In this document: piece after piece, positions 25,016 through 53,669 of the stretch
Layout: the number at the start of each line of letters is the position of its first letter
Position numbering within the stretch: the stretch's first letter is position 1
DNA from: Minisyncoccota bacterium
GTDB taxonomy: Bacteria; Patescibacteriota; Minisyncoccia; Phycocordibacterales; SBAW01
Length of the DNA stretch: 64,000 nucleotides
Assembly: GCA_035546615.1 (NCBI GenBank)
Contig: DASZWM010000003.1
Location: forward strand, 64,001 to 128,000
Reading direction: 5' to 3'
Made by a program: the position numbers and the translations under genes
The notes under the pieces: generated by a model
Told to the model about the DNA's origin: nothing
Seen by the model: the letters and a program-made list of their open reading frames with translations, nothing else
Database searches by the model: none

Positions 25016-25091
25016 TGGAGCCGGAGGCCAGGATTGAACTGGCGACCCCGTCTTTACGAAAGACGTGCTCTACCAACTGAGCTACTCCGGC
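25016..25091 (-). tRNA. tRNA-Thr (anticodon CGU), CCA encoded
   Basis: Manual fold: GCCGGAG acceptor, D-arm GCUC-AGUUGGUA-GAGC, anticodon arm CGUCU-UUCGUAA-AGACG, T-loop UUCAAUC, 3' UCCA. Confidence 0.85.
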
Positions 25092-25113: not shown

Positions 25114-25575
25114 TCATATAAGCAAACGGGCGGCAATCGCTCTTTTACTTATTGCGCGCCCTTTTCTGCCGTTTCCTTTATTGAGATTAGCATAAGTAGG
25201 ACTTAATGCGTCACAGTTCGGACAAACTAGTCTAAGATTTTCTTCTGTATTATTCTGCCAATTACCATCGATATGGTCCGCAACTAACGGCACAAGTCCG
25301 GTAACCGGATTAACTTCCGACCAACCGCACATACAACACTTATCGCCAAACTTTTCTCGCAGATAACGCTTGACCGGCCTTGAGACTATCCCCGTTACCT
25401 TTAGTCCTGTTATCTTTCCCTCTTTCCACTTTTTGATATAAGATTCGTGCTGCAATTGTGCCTGGCACTTGTTACTGCAATAGGTGTATCCAGCGCGAGC
25501 AGTCTCTGTACCACACAGAACACACGCGCTACGTGGTTTTTTAGGCATCGACATACCTACAAGAAGTATATGCAA
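25114..25575 (-). CDS. HNH endonuclease (His-Me finger), free-standing
   Basis: Cys-rich zinc knuckles (CVLCG..CSNKC, CCMCGW..CPNCD) flanking the HNH core ADHIDGNWQNNTEENLRLVCPNCD. An alternative start at MPKKPRSA (25548) is possible. Confidence 0.7.
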   Translation of the reverse strand: MHILLVGMSMPKKPRSACVLCGTETARAGYTYCSNKCQAQLQHESYIKKWKEGKITGLKVTGIVSRPVKRYLREKFGDKCCMCGWSEVNPVTGLVPLVADHIDGNWQNNTEENLRLVCPNCDALSPTYANLNKGNGRKGRAISKRAIAARLLI

Positions 25576-25627
25576 ACTGCTTATCGGTGTAAATAATTAC
25601 ATCGGAAGCAATTTACAGCATATTTTG

Positions 25628-25880
25628 AGCCGAAGGCCGGAATCGAACCGGCGACCTACTCCTTCGCTTACACCTCTTTTTTCTTTATAAGAGGGCTAGA
25701 CTGTATCTTTCTCCTGCGAACAGGAGACCCTTGTCAGTCGTTCGAGCGTCTAGGACGCTACGGTCTGGACCAGTCATGTGGCCTTTAACCGTTATTCGGG
25801 ATTCATTCCGACGTTACCGTCGGGATGGGCGGGGTCTGCGACCCACCATGGAGTTGCTCTACCATCTGAGCTACTTCGGC
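25628..25880 (-). tRNA. tRNA (probably Thr, anticodon GGU) interrupted in the anticodon loop by a ~180-nt intron
   Basis: 5' half (25850-25880): GCCGAAG-UA-GCUC-AGAUGGUA-GAGC-A-ACUCC. 3' half (25628-25662): GGAGU-AGGUC-GCCGG-UUCGAUU-CCGGC-CUUCGGC-U. Both halves are complementary in the acceptor and anticodon stems. The acceptor stem is near-identical to the adjacent tRNA-Thr(CGU). Confidence 0.6.
25665..25844 (-). ncRNA. putative compact group I intron (no internal ORF)
   Basis: R-like AACGACUGA and S-like AAGAUACAGUC elements form P7 (GACUG/CAGUC). P3 GACCC/GGGUC. P8 hairpin with UUCG loop. GNRA hairpin CCGACG-GUAA-CGUCGG. P9 hairpin CCUCUU..AGAGG, then a 3'-terminal G. Boundaries approximate. 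Confidence 0.5.
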
Positions 25881-26017
25881 TTATTGTACTGAGTCCCGAC
25901 GCTTTGGTCGGGAGGCCGACTGACACGTCGGCCCTACTTCGGCTTATACAAGAACATCTATCAACTTACAATAAAAACGGCAAAATTGCCAAAAAATATA
26001 GGCGGTATACTGGTGGC

Positions 26018-39040: not shown

Positions 39041-40912
39041 TTAGACTTTTATTTCCTTTTCGGGCGCGGCCGGCGCATCTGGAGCGTCATCGCCGTCCCC
39101 ATCCTCGGAAAGGGCTATCGGGGCCGGCGTTGGCTCGGCCTCGGGAGTATCGTCGAGCTCGAACTCGCCGCCGAGCGTGTTCACTTCCTCAAACGGCACC
39201 GTGCCCTGCGCTGACTTGATGATAGCATCCTCCTTCATGGTGAGCATGCCGTTCTTGCGCGCTATCGAGAACAGCTCGTCCTCCGGCTTGCCGGCGAGTA
39301 TCGCGTGCTCGAAGTCGGAGTTCATGCCCCACATCTCGAACGCCGCGATGCGGCCGCGCGTGCCCGACGGGCAGTCGGGAGTGACGTCCACGCGGTACAT
39401 CTCGTCAAGCGGCGGTATCTCCTTGCGGTATTCCTCCGGCAGGTCCGCGAACTGCTTGTCGAGCATCTCCTTGGTGCTGGAGTCGACTTCCACTTTTTTG
39501 CCGCCGCCCGGGCACAGGGTCTTCACCAGGCGCTGCGCCATGCCGAGGATGAGCACGGGCGGAATGAGGTACGGTTCCACGCCCATGTCCAGGAGGCGCG
39601 GGATGATACCGACGGAGTTGTTGGTGTGGATGGTCGAAAGCACGAGGTGGCCGGTCAGCGCCGCCTGCACCGCAAGGTTGGCGGTCTCGGCGTCGCGGAT
39701 CTCGCCCACCATGATGATGTTCGGGTCCTGGCGGAGCGTCGTGCGCAAGCCGTTGGCGAACGTGTAGCCTATTTCCGGCCGCACCTGCGACTGGGAGACG
39801 CCGGGTATCGTGTATTCGACCGGGTCCTCGAGGCTGAGCACGGTCTGCTTGTCGCGGTCCACCTCGTTAAGGAGCGCGTAGAGGGTCGTTGATTTGCCCG
39901 AGCCGGTCGGTCCCGAGATGAGTATCATGCCGTACGGCTTCTTTATCGCGGTGCGTATCATCTCGAGATTGCGCTTGGAGAGCCCGAAGTCCTCGAGCTT
40001 GAGGACTTTCGCGGAGGCCCCGAGAATTCTCATCACCACCTTCTCGCCGTAGTAGGTCGGGAACGTCGAGACGCGGAAGTCCACCTTGTTGCCGGCCACG
40101 CGCGCGGAGAAGCGGCCGTCCTGCGGCTTGCGCTTCTCGTCGAGCTTCATGTTTGAAAGCACCTTGATGCGCGCCACGACGGCCGAATGCACCTTGGGCG
40201 GCAGGGTGATGTTGGTTACAAGCACGCCGTCGATGCGGAAGCGCACGCGCGTCTGGTCGGCGAGCGGCTCTATGTGGATGTCGGACGCGCGCTGCTCGGC
40301 GGCGTGGCGCAGGACGGTCGCCACAATTTTGGTGACGGGCGCGTCCTCGGTTATCGCCTCCGCGCCGGTGTCGGTAATGATGTCCTCCTCGAGGCTGATG
40401 GAGCGCTTCTTGCCGTCCTTCCCCTCCTTCTGCGCTTCTATAGTGCTTTCGGTGTCGAGCTCGCCGAGCGCCTTGCCCACCTCGCCGGAGAGTCCTTTGT
40501 ACTGCTGGAGCAGGTGCTCGAAATCGGTGTCGGTAATGAGGAATATCTTGTACGGCATGCCTACCTTTGCGGAAATGAAAGTGAGCGCGTCGCGCGCTTC
40601 CAGGTTGTCCGGGTCGACGATGCCGACCTCAAGCGCGCCGTCGACTATCCCCAGCGGCGCAAAGCGGTAGTGGCGCGCGCTTTCCTCCGGCACGAACCGG
40701 AGCACCTCGAAGGGCACGTTCTTGTCGCCCACCTCGCGCGTCGGGAGGCCGTAATAGTCCCCCTTGGCCTTGAGCACCATAGGGAGCGTAATGCCGGCGG
40801 CCTGCAGCACGCCCTCGACGGTCGTGCCCGGCTTTGCGAGCTCGGCGCGAAGCTCGGCCGCCTTCGCGCGGTCAAGCGTCCCTGAATCGATTAAGAGTTG
40901 AAAGAGGTCCAT
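39041..40912 (-). CDS. pilB: type IV pilus assembly ATPase PilB (GspE family)
   Basis: 623 aa. N-terminal GSPII domains, Walker A GPTGSGKST and a tetra-Cys motif region. Confidence 0.9.
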   Translation of the reverse strand: MDLFQLLIDSGTLDRAKAAELRAELAKPGTTVEGVLQAAGITLPMVLKAKGDYYGLPTREVGDKNVPFEVLRFVPEESARHYRFAPLGIVDGALEVGIVDPDNLEARDALTFISAKVGMPYKIFLITDTDFEHLLQQYKGLSGEVGKALGELDTESTIEAQKEGKDGKKRSISLEEDIITDTGAEAITEDAPVTKIVATVLRHAAEQRASDIHIEPLADQTRVRFRIDGVLVTNITLPPKVHSAVVARIKVLSNMKLDEKRKPQDGRFSARVAGNKVDFRVSTFPTYYGEKVVMRILGASAKVLKLEDFGLSKRNLEMIRTAIKKPYGMILISGPTGSGKSTTLYALLNEVDRDKQTVLSLEDPVEYTIPGVSQSQVRPEIGYTFANGLRTTLRQDPNIIMVGEIRDAETANLAVQAALTGHLVLSTIHTNNSVGIIPRLLDMGVEPYLIPPVLILGMAQRLVKTLCPGGGKKVEVDSSTKEMLDKQFADLPEEYRKEIPPLDEMYRVDVTPDCPSGTRGRIAAFEMWGMNSDFEHAILAGKPEDELFSIARKNGMLTMKEDAIIKSAQGTVPFEEVNTLGGEFELDDTPEAEPTPAPIALSEDGDGDDAPDAPAAPEKEIKV

Positions 40913-40924
40913 AGCAGGCCATAC

Positions 40925-41215
40925 CTATAAGGGCGCGAACGGATTGCGCCGCCCCGCGTTCTCGGGCGGGATCTGCACGCCGTAGTCGGTAAGCGAGGTG
41001 AAAATGGGGTCGCTGAAGATGCTCGAGTCCAGGCGGATGACGGTAAGGTTCGAGAGCGTCGTAAGCACGTCAGCCGACAAGGGCGAGGCCTGCGGGATCT
41101 CCAGCAGGGTGTTGTTCGCCGGGCCGCCGGAGAAGTACGTCATATACAGCCACCAGGCGAGCACCGCCGCGACGACGAGGCCGATATACAGTTTGTTGTC
41201 TTTAAGGAATTGCAT
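40925..41215 (-). CDS. small membrane-anchored pilus assembly protein (PilP-like, tentative)
   Basis: 96 aa, single TM. Position between pilO and pilB. Confidence 0.35.
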   Translation of the reverse strand: MQFLKDNKLYIGLVVAAVLAWWLYMTYFSGGPANNTLLEIPQASPLSADVLTTLSNLTVIRLDSSIFSDPIFTSLTDYGVQIPPENAGRRNPFAPL

Positions 41216-41222
41216 GGTGGTG

Positions 41223-41774
41223 TTAATGGAGCCAGTAGGTCCGGATAGAAAGCGTGTAGTCGCTGAGGCCGGTTTCCGTCGCGGCGAACTTTATCTCCTC
41301 CACGTCCACGACGCGCAGACTGTGCTCGAGGTCCTGCAGGAACGCGAGGAAGTCGTCGTACGACGCCGAGAGCGTGAATCCGAGCGACACCGACCCTATC
41401 GCGTCTCCCGACGCCCCGACCGCGGCGGCGCTGCGCGCGGAGGCCGCGTCGGAAACGCTCCCGAGCTGCACATTCTTGAGGCTGAGCCCGTGGCGCGCGG
41501 CGATGTTGTTTATGTCGATGATGAGGTGGATATTGTCCACGTTGTCCGGGAGTATCTCCTCGAGCCGGTCCTTGTTCTCGACCGAGAAGGTGTTGAACGC
41601 CGCGGTCTTCTGGTCGCGTATCTTGCGCAGCTCCTGCGACTTGTCGAGCGCTTCGTCGTACGTCTTCACTTCCGCCTGGAGGCTCTTGGTGCTTTGATAG
41701 GTCGGATTGGTATACATAACGAAGAGGCCGATTGCGGCCAGGACGAGGAGGATGGGCAGTGCGAGTCTGGTCAT
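41223..41774 (-). CDS. pilO: type IV pilus assembly protein PilO-like
   Basis: N-terminal TM, coiled coil and a ferredoxin-like periplasmic domain. Position after pilN. Confidence 0.6.
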   Translation of the reverse strand: MTRLALPILLVLAAIGLFVMYTNPTYQSTKSLQAEVKTYDEALDKSQELRKIRDQKTAAFNTFSVENKDRLEEILPDNVDNIHLIIDINNIAARHGLSLKNVQLGSVSDAASARSAAAVGASGDAIGSVSLGFTLSASYDDFLAFLQDLEHSLRVVDVEEIKFAATETGLSDYTLSIRTYWLH

Positions 41775-41778
41775 GATG

Positions 41779-42462
41779 TTATTGGGCGGCTTTTGGCGCT
41801 CCTGACGAAGGGGGCGTTGTGGAGGCGGCCGGAGCCGCGGGCGTCTGGGGCGCGGCGGTTTCCGCCGGGGGCAGCGACTGCGGCGCGGCGAGGTTCTTGG
41901 CGTATGAGATGAGCGCGGAATCCACCGTAGCCGTTACATGGAACGATACGGCGCCGCTATCTTTTATCGCGATGTCCGAGAAGAGGAGGTCCTTGAGCAC
42001 CTTGCTCGCGCCGAACTGGTCGGATTGGAGCGCCACGCCGGAGAAGCTGTCGGCCACGCCGGAGAGAGTGATGTCAGCCGACCCGTCGTCCTTCAGCTCG
42101 TAGGAGAATTCCGTCAGCTGGACGCTTTCAAGCGTCTGCTGCGCGAGGAAGTAGAAGATCGCCGAAGGGGCGATGTGCTTGTTGAGGACCGCGCGGGCCT
42201 GGGTCAGGCGGGTATCGAACCGCACGAGCAATTGGATGCTGGGCAGGTCAAACGCCTCCTGGTACTTAACCAACGAGTCCTTTTTGTCCTGGAGCGACTT
42301 GTCGAGCAGGCGCGTATACGCGAAGGCGCCGCCCGCGGCCGCGATGGATGCGACGAAGAAGAGCACGGCTATAAGGAGAATGAGGCCGGAGAAGCCGCGC
42401 ACGCCGCGCGCCTCGACAAGCGGCTTCTTGGGTATGAACGATGCCTGGAGCGAAGGATCCAT
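41779..42462 (-). CDS. pilN: type IV pilus assembly protein PilN-like
   Basis: Short cytoplasmic N-terminus, single TM, periplasmic domain and a Pro/Ala-rich tail. Follows pilM. Confidence 0.6.
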   Translation of the reverse strand: MDPSLQASFIPKKPLVEARGVRGFSGLILLIAVLFFVASIAAAGGAFAYTRLLDKSLQDKKDSLVKYQEAFDLPSIQLLVRFDTRLTQARAVLNKHIAPSAIFYFLAQQTLESVQLTEFSYELKDDGSADITLSGVADSFSGVALQSDQFGASKVLKDLLFSDIAIKDSGAVSFHVTATVDSALISYAKNLAAPQSLPPAETAAPQTPAAPAASTTPPSSGAPKAAQ

Positions 42463-42560
42463 CTTGGGCTTAATTATATAGTATGAAAAAACATCGCATG
42501 AGAGCTATCAACAAGCGAGTTCGCGCAGTTGATAGCAAATTAAATAGTCAACATGGTCTT

Positions 42561-43670
42561 TTATCCGACTTCCTGCAGCCGTCTGAGCGCCAGCCCCACC
42601 GCCACCGCAAACTCCGGTCCCGCTTCTTTCAGTATGCCTTCGAGGAAGGCGGGCGCCTGGGTCTTTCCGAACGGGTCGGCGAGCCGTATCTCGTTGGGAA
42701 TCTTGCTTTGGGCGAATTCCTTGAAGCCTTTCAGCGCCGCTCCCCCGCCGGTCGCTACCAGAGTGCTCAGGGTCTGGTTGGTGCGCTGCTCGTAGCCGAC
42801 TATTGTGCGCGAGAGCTCGGAGAGAAGCGGCGCCAGCGACAGCTCGAAGGACTGCACCAGCTGCGCCGTTACCTCGTTCTGCTGGGCGGCCGTGGGCGCG
42901 AGGCCGACCTTCCTCTTTCTCTCCTCGGCCTCCATGACCGAAATGTTGAGCGCGCGCGAAGCGGCGAGCGTGAGGTTCTGCGAGCCCTGGTTGATGATAT
43001 GGCTCTCGTGTATGAGCCCGCGCTCGACGACATAGAACTTCGTCGTCGCCGCGCCCATGTCAACGACCGCCACCGGCGCCAGGCCGTGCTCGAGCGCCGC
43101 GCGCACCGCGCTGAAGACCTCTATTTCGAAAAACGCCACCGCAAGCGCCGCGTCGGAGGCTATTGCGCGGAACTTCGCGATGGTGTCGTTATGTATCGCC
43201 ACCAGGAGCACTTCTATCTTGTCCTGCTCTCCCTTGGCGGCGGCCTTGTCGTTGCCGACCACGAACCAATCGAGCAGGACTTCGTTTATGGGCACCGGGA
43301 TATACTTGCGCGCCTCGATAGGCACGACCTGCGCCAGCTGCTTCTCGACCGTAGCGGGGAGCTTAATGATGGAAATGAGGCTCGAGGAGTACGGAATGGA
43401 TATCGCCGCGTCGGCAGTGGTGACATTGGCCTCGCGGATGACATCCTTGAGCGCTTCTGATATCTTGTCGGCCGGAAGCGAGGTCGCGCGGCCTATCTCC
43501 ACCCCCGCATAGGGGCCGAGCGATATCGCGCCGTAGGTTTCCAGTATCACCTTCCCCTTCTCGCGCCTCAGCTGCACGACCTTTATGGCCGAGGTACCGA
43601 TATCCACCCCAAGCACGCTATGCGCTTCCTGCGAGAACATTTTAGAGAAATCAGGGATAGAGAACGCCAT
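42561..43670 (-). CDS. pilM: type IV pilus assembly protein PilM (actin-like ATPase)
   Basis: Actin-fold motifs (GVDIGTSAIKVV; DMGAATTKF). 369 aa. Confidence 0.85.
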   Translation of the reverse strand: MAFSIPDFSKMFSQEAHSVLGVDIGTSAIKVVQLRREKGKVILETYGAISLGPYAGVEIGRATSLPADKISEALKDVIREANVTTADAAISIPYSSSLISIIKLPATVEKQLAQVVPIEARKYIPVPINEVLLDWFVVGNDKAAAKGEQDKIEVLLVAIHNDTIAKFRAIASDAALAVAFFEIEVFSAVRAALEHGLAPVAVVDMGAATTKFYVVERGLIHESHIINQGSQNLTLAASRALNISVMEAEERKRKVGLAPTAAQQNEVTAQLVQSFELSLAPLLSELSRTIVGYEQRTNQTLSTLVATGGGAALKGFKEFAQSKIPNEIRLADPFGKTQAPAFLEGILKEAGPEFAVAVGLALRRLQEVG

Positions 43671-46406: not shown

Positions 46407-46434
46407 CTATCTATTATAGCATTTTGCCCAAATG

Positions 46435-46521
46435 CGGAGGCGGAAGGATTCGAACCTTCGGTCCAGTTTCCCGGACAACAACTTAGCAGGTTGCTGCATT
46501 CGACCGCTCTGCCACGCCTCC
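46435..46521 (-). tRNA. tRNA-Ser (anticodon GCU), class II
   Basis: GGAGGCG acceptor, anticodon arm GCAAC-CUGCUAA-GUUGU, long variable arm UGUCCGGGAAACUGGACC, T-loop UUCGAAU, discriminator G. Confidence 0.85.
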
Positions 46522-46535
46522 GTTACCTCAACACC

Positions 46536-47837
46536 TTACAACAAATTCTCCCTTGACGCACCCCGTTTGCGCTCTTCTTTTACATGACGGTACAGTGTTA
46601 GCAACTCATCCGCAATGCGTGCGCTTCGGAACCGCTCCGACGTCTGTTGGGCGGCGGCGGCCATTGCCAGCCGCTTATCGGTATCGCCAAGCAGTTCTCT
46701 CGCCCGCTCTTCCGCTTCCTTCTCCGTCGATACCAGGAACCCGTTCCTCCCGTCTTCTATTATTTCCGGAGCTACGCCGACGGCGAAAGAAATAGGTACC
46801 AGTCCCTGCGACATGCCTTCTATCAAGCTGAGCGAAAAGCCTTCGTACCGGGAGGAAAGGAACAGGATGCTGCCGAAGAGCGGGGCAAGCGCGCCCGGAA
46901 TCAGGTCTTTGCGCAAATTCACAAACATATGATGCTTGGGAAAAGAGACTCGCAACCACTCTTTAAGCTTGCGGTTGGTCGTCATGCAGACCGTCGTTTT
47001 TGGAACATCCGGAAAAGCGCGGAAAAAGGCGACCAAGCGAGACAAGCCTTTTAGTTTTAGCGTAAAAACGTCATTGCCCAGCCGACCGAGAAATACCAGA
47101 TGGGGAGGCTGCGCGGCAACGGTACGCCTCGATTCGAACCAGTAATCCTCGATGGCATTATGGATGACGTGGATCCGTTCGGACGGAATATCCATAGCAA
47201 TAAGCTCATCTCTTACTTTCTGGGAAGTGGCGATGCAGGCGGCCGCGCGAGAAGCGGTCAAGGCTTCCACGTCCGCCACATCCTCCATCGGGCGAAATGT
47301 TTTAAGTTCTATTTCTGGAATGATTTGAAGCGCTGTTAACTCTCTAAATACCGCTTTCTCATGCCGCGGAAGCAGTTTCGTCTGGGGAACGGAATCAAGA
47401 TATCCGCGAACGGTAGAGCCGAAATGACAAATGATGGGCGTAGTAAAAGAAGTGAACGGAAGTGGCGTATATGTTGTGCCTTGAATGATGTCGTATTTGA
47501 GCATCGCGTCTTTATGCTCAAGCATCGAATAGAAGAAGAGAATGTTCGCTATGCCGCGCAGGTGCACAGGAGCGTCGGTCAGCTGGTGTCGGGGGTAAAA
47601 ATTCTTGATCTGCACTCCGCGCGCGGCAAGCGCCCGGGCCATAAGGCGGTTTATCTGCGCGGCTCCGGTATGCATGCCGGCATGTACGCGCTTTTCGTTA
47701 TGGATAAAAGCGACTTTTATGCCGCTGCGCCGGACAGTTTTGGGCAACGGCTCAGCCTTATCCGAAGAAAACCGCCGAAGCAGGGAGCGGGTGGCGCGGA
47801 AGGCCCGCCGCTGAAGACCATGTCCCCATTCTTGCAT
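46536..47837 (-). CDS. glycosyltransferase family 4 (GT-B, RfaG-like)
   Basis: C-terminal GT1/GT4 motif region (EGFSLSLIEGMSQGLVPIS). 433 aa. Confidence 0.75.
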   Translation of the reverse strand: MQEWGHGLQRRAFRATRSLLRRFSSDKAEPLPKTVRRSGIKVAFIHNEKRVHAGMHTGAAQINRLMARALAARGVQIKNFYPRHQLTDAPVHLRGIANILFFYSMLEHKDAMLKYDIIQGTTYTPLPFTSFTTPIICHFGSTVRGYLDSVPQTKLLPRHEKAVFRELTALQIIPEIELKTFRPMEDVADVEALTASRAAACIATSQKVRDELIAMDIPSERIHVIHNAIEDYWFESRRTVAAQPPHLVFLGRLGNDVFTLKLKGLSRLVAFFRAFPDVPKTTVCMTTNRKLKEWLRVSFPKHHMFVNLRKDLIPGALAPLFGSILFLSSRYEGFSLSLIEGMSQGLVPISFAVGVAPEIIEDGRNGFLVSTEKEAEERARELLGDTDKRLAMAAAAQQTSERFRSARIADELLTLYRHVKEERKRGASRENLL

Positions 47838-53522: not shown

Positions 53523-53595
53523 GGGCGTGTAGCTCAGTTGGTAGAGCAGCCGACTTATACTCGGCCGGTCCCAGGTTCGATCCCTGGCGCGCCCA
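53523..53595 (+). tRNA. tRNA-Ile (anticodon UAU)
   Basis: Manual fold: GGGCGUG acceptor, D-arm GCUC-AGUUGGUA-GAGC, anticodon arm GCCGA-CUUAUAC-UCGGC, T-arm CCAGG-UUCGAUC-CCUGG, discriminator A. Confidence 0.75.
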
Positions 53596-53669
53596 CAAAA
53601 TACAGAAACACCTGCCCTGCGGCAGGTTTTGTGCTACTGTTGTGCGGGTTCATTAACAGGGAGGGCGCG

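Follow-up and report, generated by a model that had tools for sequence, protein, structure and literature searches.

A free-standing, probably homing-type HNH endonuclease gene tied to tRNA-Thr on a Patescibacteria chromosome

Why should an HNH endonuclease gene lie between two tRNA-Thr genes, one of them split by an intron, on an ultra-small bacterial chromosome? The question is raised by a 64,000-nucleotide (nt) stretch of contig DASZWM010000003.1 from a Minisyncoccota bacterium, a member of the Patescibacteria, or candidate phyla radiation (CPR); the whole stretch is called the window below. A first-pass annotation of the window had noticed the gene and suggested that it mobilises the neighboring intron by collaborative homing. 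The analyses described here give that idea partial support and point mainly elsewhere. The gene probably encodes a homing-type, free-standing HNH endonuclease that has made its niche in the DNA flanking tRNA genes, above all tRNA-Thr.

The gene occupies window positions 25114..25554 on the minus strand and encodes 146 amino acids plus a stop codon. The maximal minus-strand open reading frame (ORF) is longer (25575..25114; 153 amino acids from a TTG at 25575) and had been taken as the gene. The true start is most likely the ATG at 25554, because the deposited protein (Candidatus Paceibacterota; 146 amino acids, 100% identical to the ORF), the homologue N termini, which share M-x-M-P-K-K-P-R, and the position of the promoter all agree. 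A promoter-like TTTACA-17-TATACT (25565..25593, minus strand) places its final base 10 nt ahead of this ATG. The AT-rich segment around it, 25576-25627, is the gene's own promoter and leader, and its earlier reading as a sign of recent acquisition is withdrawn. Apart from the start codon, the original description of the site was accurate: the ORF does lie between tRNA-Thr genes, its stop codon is 22 nt from tRNA-Thr(CGU) (25016..25091, minus strand), and the split tRNA-Thr(GGU) has its 3' end at 25627, at a distance of 51 nt to the TTG and 72 nt to the ATG. The ORF has a promoter-like site of its own in an intergenic spacer between two tRNA genes, outside any intron or intein, and it is probably co-transcribed with tRNA-Thr(CGU).

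The protein combines two modules, an N-terminal zinc ribbon (CxxC...CxxxC) that is weakly YacG- or DUF2116-like, and a CxxC-flanked HNH core (C73/C76, D93-H94, N102, N106, and C111-P-N-C114). The motif DHIDGNWQNNTEENLRLVCPNC is unchanged throughout the family, and D93-H94, N102, N106, and N113 are invariant across 30 homologues; this is an HNH, or His-Me finger, core in which the catalytic His is preceded by Asp and accompanied by conserved Asn. Profile searches agreed with the HNH assignment, with PHROG HNH families matching at 5e-15 and a model labeled "homing endonuclease" giving the best PADLOC match (2e-10). The Pfam gathering cut-offs were not reached (HNH_3, PF13392, 19.4 versus 24.8 bits; HNH, PF01844, 15.1 versus 21.4 bits), and HNH_3 also stays under threshold in 23 of 30 family members, showing that Pfam does not capture this family. 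The sole sequence match in the PDB, I-HmuI (1u3e), is weak (E 0.42) and runs through the motif (l)vvDHkDGNkdNNlsxNLR. An AlphaFold2 (AF2) model of the protein (pLDDT 82) matches generic HNH cores only, namely, those of ScoMcrA, PacI, Cas9 HNH, Cap5, T4 endonuclease VII, and I-HmuI, with a best E value of 4.5e-3. Judged from its sequence, the gene appears to be a small, intact HNH nuclease of the selfish homing-endonuclease type.

The family is large. More than 1500 homologues are 65-77% identical to the window protein, and at E <= 1e-30 a profile search returned 597 clusters formed at 50% identity, in which most proteins have an extra N-terminal region. When GTDB species genomes were scanned, a relative turned up in at least 588 of them; the counts of neighboring genes in the next paragraph refer to the best 80 loci of that scan, which are mostly from CPR, and individual loci of the comparison are cited by L numbers. 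A literature search found no paper on this zinc-ribbon-plus-HNH family, its tRNA-Thr preference, or its prevalence on CPR chromosomes.

What these loci have in common is the gene that follows. A same-strand tRNA-Thr lies directly downstream of the HNH gene in about 77 of the 80 loci (in one, it is a tRNA-Ala), within -38 to +166 nt of the HNH stop codon, and the linkage spans four bacterial phyla, CPR, Chloroflexota, Cyanobacteria, and Acidobacteriota. CPR and Chloroflexota loci have a downstream CGU anticodon and cyanobacterial loci UGU, and the Acidobacteriota locus has tRNA-Ala(CGC). The two genes often overlap: the HNH ORF stops at the tRNA's own U8-A9-G10 in about 30 loci, and other loci show an overlap of 21-38 nt with the tRNA or a gap of 1-60 nt. 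Loci L037 and L068 have the order tRNA-Thr(CGU), HNH, prfB. The upstream neighbor varies from locus to locus: about 15 loci have an intact tRNA-Thr(GGU) there and 13 a split one, and others have tRNA-Gly(CCC), tRNA-Asp, or non-tRNA DNA; most HNH loci have no tRNA-Thr(GGU) nearby. The conserved partner of the family is the downstream tRNA-Thr and not the intron.

The same association is seen in phages. HNH homologues with 34-45% identity occur in 137 phage records, and tRNA-Thr abuts the gene in four of the six phages inspected. In Enterococcus phage iF6 (L165, MT909815.1), the homologue (41103-41519, 45% identical) runs into tRNA-Thr(UGU), and in Streptomyces phage Jada, Escherichia coli jumbo phage vB_Ec-M-J, and the T5-like Klebsiella phage AmPh_EK80, the gene begins 31-77 nt after tRNA-Thr. 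The other two have another tRNA at this position, the homologue overlapping tRNA-Gly in Jollison and tRNA-Val in RN05-S. Of 86 IMG/VR loci, 66 carry a tRNA no more than 250 nt away, and a tRNA-Thr is adjacent in 34, although its share of the tRNAs in these viral loci is 12% overall (enrichment P = 0.002 downstream and 3e-8 upstream). A plasmid search gave a single match, in a Curtobacterium plasmid tRNA array, 105 nt after tRNA-Thr(UGU), and cyanobacterial plasmid proteins of the all8564 type were not detectable homologues at E <= 1e-5; the single plasmid match indicates that the array-linked all8564-type HNH is not a close relative. As an aside, the HNH homologue is unannotated in the iF6 record (39903-42719), whose tRNA cluster is annotated on the strand opposite to that called by ARAGORN.

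Recombination at tRNA genes appears to have left traces at these loci. About 15 of them carry tRNA 5' halves or other fragments at the cassette borders, the expected residue of imprecise recombination within tRNA genes. In eight loci a 5' fragment stands directly upstream of the leader (L004, 3912-3943; L005, 3912-3944; L008, 3911-3942; L016, 3780-3822; L021, 1897-1918; L028, 3912-3944; L065, 3919-3945; L080, 3946-3969), and several such fragments end 56-58 nt ahead of the HNH ATG. In L010, L028, L044, L062, and L075, the HNH ORF runs at its 3' end into a fused fragment, after which comes a complete tRNA (fragment coordinates, L028, 4447-4480; L044, 604-627; L062, 380-398). ARAGORN "introns" of about 500 nt that span the ORF suggested that the HNH gene might sit inside a degenerate tRNA-Thr(CGU) intron. 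This idea was rejected because a complete tRNA directly follows the ORF, leaving no space for a ribozyme 3' half, and because the upstream pieces are separate 5' fragments with mismatched acceptor arms; in L016, for example, the acceptor arm of the intact tRNA downstream reads GCCGGAG..., unlike that of the remnant, GCCGAAG... (anticodon CGT).

Insertion at this site is polymorphic among close relatives. Relatives were sampled through the neighboring gene for release factor 2 (RF2), and 29 had an RF2 at least 68% identical together with a readable tRNA region. The HNH gene is missing at the same site in 20 of these 29 (L081-L085 and 15 more), and presence and absence are interspersed on the RF2 tree. 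In the five nearest relatives (RF2 83-86%), a spacer of 34-108 nt separates the two tRNA-Thr genes and holds no HNH gene, in line with the original description of a free-standing, inserted gene resembling a homing endonuclease gene. The empty-site spacer has no sequence in common with the HNH flanks of the window. Compared with L081 and L082, the window has a tRNA-Thr(CGU) with a different anticodon stem and T stem, and its tRNA-Thr(GGU) exons are identical.

The history of the gene appears to be decoupled from host phylogeny. Pairwise HNH identity is flat at about 66% across RF2 identities of 35-80% (r = 0.12, 1653 pairs), with discordance in both directions: L068 and L057 share 81% RF2 identity and 57% HNH identity, and L138 and L005 share 55% and 83%, respectively. 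The protein is under purifying selection, with dN/dS (the ratio of nonsynonymous to synonymous substitution rates) at 0.04-0.17 and 13 key residues intact in 74 of 79 loci. The window ORF has a GC content of 0.41-0.46 against 0.58-0.62 in its flanks, a deficit of 12 points. Across the family, the ORF averages 5.7 points under its host and follows host GC (r = 0.80), so that the low value in the window is largely a family trait and not specific evidence of recent arrival; we rejected low GC as proof of recent acquisition, the ORF being AT-shifted in nearly all hosts and tracking their GC.

A model can be proposed in which the cassette consists of the sigma-70-like promoter, leader, and ORF, set in the spacer between tRNA-Thr(GGU) and tRNA-Thr(CGU) and running into the latter. 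The enzyme would nick or cut at or beside the tRNA-Thr gene of cassette-less genomes, and repair from a cassette-bearing copy, with the conserved tRNA genes serving as homology arms, would copy the cassette in. Flanking sequence, including tRNA-Thr(CGU) and sometimes the neighboring intron, could be co-converted. Expression is probably low: the mRNA ends in or overlaps a tRNA, and the need to process out this terminal or adjacent tRNA would limit HNH synthesis.

Several points weigh against this model, in which cleavage, its site, and homing are inferred. The flat HNH identity could partly reflect fast saturation of variable sites. In addition, inheritance of the gene may be largely vertical and old, since ORF GC tracks host GC and the position is syntenic across much of Paceibacteria, and in cellular genomes an element that is purely selfish would not usually keep so very high a fraction of its copies intact. 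Finally, locus L098 lacks the HNH gene, yet its tRNA-Thr(CGU) has the same anticodon and D arms as that of the window; the target thus cannot be confined to the tRNA body, unless the enzyme cleaves its own allele as well, or tolerates it. For the same reason, an "immune" tRNA-Thr(CGU) variant traveling with the HNH gene is unsupported.

Whether the intron takes part depends first on what it is. On the minus strand the locus reads: a repeat with a hairpin insert, the split tRNA-Thr(GGU), the AT-rich leader, the HNH ORF, the 22-nt spacer, tRNA-Thr(CGU), prfB, ftsE, and ftsX. The split gene comprises a 5' exon (25845..25880; tRNA positions 1-36, the last base being U36), a 180-nt intron (25665..25844), and a 3' exon (25627..25664). 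With introns allowed, ARAGORN finds this tRNA and calls it Arg(GCG) with an intron at 34/35. Since the uninterrupted tRNA-Thr(GGU) of L081 and L082 is 100% identical to the joined exons, the insertion site is fixed at 36/37, after U36, and the intron ends in a terminal G. Folding of 20 homologous split tRNAs with RNAalifold gave the cloverleaf together with P1, P2, P4, P5, P6, P7, P8, and P9, the assessment covering the helices other than the pseudoknot P3. Compensatory changes affect 40 of the 67 pairs of this fold, in which the P1 U36.G pair at the splice site and P7 (GACUG/CAGUC) are invariant. No ORF is present within the 180 nt. Covariation and the intron-less alleles thus bear out the first-pass annotation on this point, and the element is a genuine ORF-less group I intron of a type already published. 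Permissive Rfam scans of the locus gave no match to RF00028 at E <= 10, a result that does not weigh against the intron because both the covariation and the literature show that RF00028 misses this family.

Castelle et al., in 2018, reportedly also dealt with divergent tRNA-Thr(GGU) introns of Patescibacteria. The window intron is of the kind described by Nakagawa et al. 2026 (PMC13011429), who reported divergent Patescibacteria group I introns at position 36/37 of tRNA-Thr(GGU) that RF00028 misses and ARAGORN miscalls as Arg(GCG) with a 34/35 intron. It shares the site, the RF00028 miss, and the ARAGORN miscall with that type and, at 180 nt, falls just under the reported length range of 184-894 nt (PMC13011429). 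The same survey of Patescibacteria tRNA introns reached the conclusion that these introns, having no endonuclease genes, undergo limited horizontal transfer; flanking free-standing endonuclease genes were not covered by it (PMC13011429).

Collaborative homing would offer such an endonuclease: the HNH enzyme would cut intron-less tRNA-Thr(GGU) near 36/37, and the ORF-less intron would confer immunity and move along with the HNH gene. We consider collaborative homing unlikely, even though, in counts uncorrected for phylogeny, the two elements do occur together beyond expectation. The intron is about 110 nt from the HNH ATG and has no ORF of its own, and the window carries both elements when its five nearest relatives have neither. 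In pooled counts that ignore kinship, tRNA-Thr(GGU) is split in 18 of 35 cases beside an HNH gene and in 3 of 20 without one (odds ratio [OR] 6, P = 0.0097), against a base rate of 3 introns in tRNA-Thr(GGU) among 95 complete Patescibacteria genomes (PMC13011429; the three genomes are GCA_001029635.1, GCA_016700375.1, and GCA_030583745.1). Some of the upstream tRNA 5'-half remnants break in the anticodon loop, near the intron site, and the family prefers tRNA-Thr whatever its anticodon.

The association weakens among close relatives alone (OR 7, P = 0.067; P = 0.14 without the window; kinship again ignored), and a shared phylogeny is not seen: intron and HNH divergence correlate at r = 0.33. 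The window intron is 80-81% identical to introns of HNH-minus and HNH-plus loci alike. HNH alleles are not sorted by intron state either, as the allele of the intron-less locus L114 is 82% identical to those of L099 and L103, and the allele closest to the window's, in L001, adjoins an intron-less tRNA. Each element also occurs alone. In at least 15 loci, the HNH gene lies 55-143 nt from an intact, essentially wild-type tRNA-Thr(GGU), whose anticodon arm is the same as in HNH-less alleles (L001 versus L135), and L098, L101, and L116 have the intron without the HNH gene. The coexistence of HNH genes and intact tRNA-Thr(GGU) speaks indirectly against cutting of the intron-less allele at the intron site. 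Sister pairs can differ in one element, with L105 carrying both and L101 the intron, or L099 both and L114 the HNH gene (HNH 82% identical). The scarcity of tRNA-Thr(GGU) near HNH genes family-wide points the same way. Comparison of related genomes thus gave a divided answer to the original proposal, with co-occurrence speaking for it and the solitary occurrence of either element, along with the discordant phylogenies, against it. Block co-transfer of intron and HNH gene was likewise unsupported by the distance correlations. On the simplest reading, the intron is a resident of the syntenic neighbor gene and may occasionally hitchhike in co-conversion tracts. For annotation, this is a caution that an HNH gene beside an intron is mostly a consequence of the synteny of tRNA-Thr(GGU) and tRNA-Thr(CGU).

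A related and similarly doubtful scenario is a tRNA-Thr-specific lineage with "duplicative" homing, which would have colonized hundreds of CPR species along with cyanobacteria, Chloroflexota, and phages and would land in or beside a tRNA-Thr gene and bring or regenerate an intact tRNA. This would explain the upstream tRNA 5'-half remnants and the downstream fusion of ORF and tRNA. The 36/37 intron would then be both an immunity device, because the enzyme would recognize features common to tRNA-Thr genes, and a hitchhiker. If true, this would be a case of collaborative homing in a cellular genome and would help explain how introns persist in tiny genomes.

Alternatively, the gene may have been domesticated and no longer move, serving the host at the tRNA-Thr locus or against incoming DNA, for instance, by cutting phage tRNA clusters or by binding its own operator and the tRNA promoter. 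The leader is relevant here. In most relatives, the AT-rich leader contains an inverted repeat, ACGACCA...TGGTCGT, over a TTGAC -35 box; most CPR loci have it 60-90 nt upstream of where the HNH gene starts (e.g., L001, L019, L035, L060, L087, L099, and L114); the leader of the window has diverged from this pattern. The right arm of the repeat and the bases after it (GGTCGTnnGTTC) are similar to parts of tRNA-Thr, its variable loop and T stem, so the repeat could be an operator mimicking the target site, or the resemblance could be due to chance. Autorepression by I-TevI is a precedent for an operator resembling the target site. The possibility that the leader is a decayed whole tRNA was not upheld, as L037 has the same leader after an intact tRNA.

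Domestication is quite improbable in our estimate. The overlap of this conserved repeat with the HNH promoter would suit it, as would a dN/dS of about 0.1 with 94% of copies intact, a partly ameliorated GC content, and a conserved position in which the gene is probably co-transcribed with an essential tRNA. However, most close relatives do without the gene, and closely related hosts hold different HNH alleles. The gene is found on either side of the tRNA with scars of tRNA fragments at its borders, its nearest relatives outside CPR are phage tRNA-cluster genes, no defense genes lie nearby, and the best PADLOC match is to a homing endonuclease. An McrA-like or other type IV restriction or defense nuclease is very improbable, for although Foldseek ranks the HNH domains of ScoMcrA, PacI, and EcoKMcrA highest (E 4.5e-3 to 0.1) and the HNH domains of ZorE and PtuB match weakly, these similarities are confined to the generic HNH core of a 146-amino-acid protein that has a small zinc ribbon as its N terminus and no modification-reading or partner domain, the neighborhood has no defense character, and the strict tRNA linkage would be left unexplained.

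Several further observations concern the surroundings of the gene. Upstream of the split tRNA, at 25885..25947 on the minus strand, lie a copy of the 14-nt repeat ATAAGCCGAAGTAG and a 49-nt insert of two hairpins. The repeat corresponds to 4 nt plus the first 10 nt of tRNA-Thr(GGU), and as a direct repeat it flanks the insert, whose two CCGAC...GTCGG hairpins resemble the P2 hairpin of the intron (25808-25823). The hairpin motif has six matches in the window, three of them at the HNH/tRNA locus. L010 (4440-4500) and L116 (1755-1875) have similar hairpin inserts, there within duplicated 5' fragments of tRNAs that immediately precede intact tRNAs. The insert may be a small element resembling miniature inverted-repeat transposable elements that targets the 5' part of tRNA genes, and the repeat and insert may be the left border of DNA that was rearranged or imported; they may or may not belong to the HNH element.

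ARAGORN also proposed a second split tRNA in the window (46434-46757, minus strand; tRNA-Val with a 235-nt intron), which is an artifact combining tRNA-Ser(GCU) with upstream coding sequence and has none of the motifs of the intron family. In related genomes it called more split tRNAs (tRNA-Asp and tRNA-Met, inserts of about 200-230 nt), at L013 798-1083, L017 1065-1366, L030 7095-7370 (minus strand), and L115 1042-1332, with no adjacent HNH gene. It further called a tRNA-Ile with anticodon UAU at window positions 53523-53596 (plus strand); the usual bacterial tRNA-Ile2 has CAU, modified to lysidine.

The prfB start (window 25015/25016) abuts the encoded CCA of tRNA-Thr(CGU), and gaps of 0-5 nt between CCA and prfB are also found in L083, L085, L088, L095, L100, L109, L111, L112, L115, L117, and L143. 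Such a gap leaves no room for a Shine-Dalgarno sequence outside the tRNA, which points to a leaderless prfB mRNA generated when the 3' end of the tRNA is processed. The RF2 encoded here is short (285 amino acids) and has no programmed-frameshift site.

In sum, one HNH family is very widespread and is tightly and specifically tied to tRNA-Thr genes on ultra-small CPR chromosomes. The window gene provides a concrete candidate for an endonuclease targeting tRNA-Thr loci, and such an enzyme could lie behind the replacement of tRNA genes, the tRNA-fragment scars, and perhaps the spread of introns in Patescibacteria.

The closest parallels come from phages. The endonuclease genes of T5 F-TflI/II/IV and T4 SegB lie in tRNA clusters (PMC2330249), and the three T5 enzymes are free-standing HNH endonucleases (Akulenko et al. 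2004, as cited in PMC2330249 and PMC5714182). As in T5, the window gene is a small free-standing HNH ORF wedged between tRNA genes; the comparison runs through homologues in T5-like and T4-like phages. The homologue in Klebsiella phage AmPh_EK80 is 43% identical (residues 25-130) and lies 77 nt after tRNA-Thr, and T4-like homologues of the HNH half carry the annotation "F-TflIV." The window gene differs in residing on a cellular CPR chromosome, in its additional zinc ribbon, and in its attachment to one particular tRNA, and its cleavage activity is predicted. SegB recognizes a T-loop motif of tRNA genes and drives its own inheritance along with that of neighboring tRNA genes (PMC2330249). Like the window gene, it lies between tRNA genes, and limited expression through tRNA processing, which would be expected for the end of the window ORF as well, has been argued for SegB and the T5 F-Tfl genes (PMC2330249). 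Unlike it, SegB is a GIY-YIG enzyme, and thus from another nuclease superfamily, with activity shown only for phage coinfection.

Other known systems share single features. In cyanophage S-PM2, F-CphI goes with the psbA intron (PMC6083498), and in T4, mobE goes with the nrdB intron, defective in I-TevIII (PMC2790892); both likewise pair a free-standing endonuclease gene with a gene holding an ORF-less or ORF-defective group I intron. In both pairs the enzyme cuts at or near the intron site and the partners are co-inherited, whereas the family described here is mostly intron-free and shows no co-phylogeny with the intron. I-HmuI, a nicking enzyme of phage SPO1, differs in being intron encoded, in having NUMOD and helix-turn-helix (HTH) DNA-binding domains, and in lacking CxxC pairs (TM-score 0.2). 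Homing-type HNH genes are also linked to tRNA clusters in bacteria, where HNH is the commonest protein gene in the tRNA arrays of mycobacteria and of their plasmids and phages (PMC5966550) and HNH genes stand upstream of cyanobacterial L-arrays (all8564; PMC8421152); horizontal spread has been proposed for these arrays (PMC5966550, PMC8421152), which differ from the two-tRNA locus of the window. The kind of element is therefore already known from T5, T4, and tRNA arrays; the window gene adds a new member to it, and the family-level pattern may deserve a description of its own.

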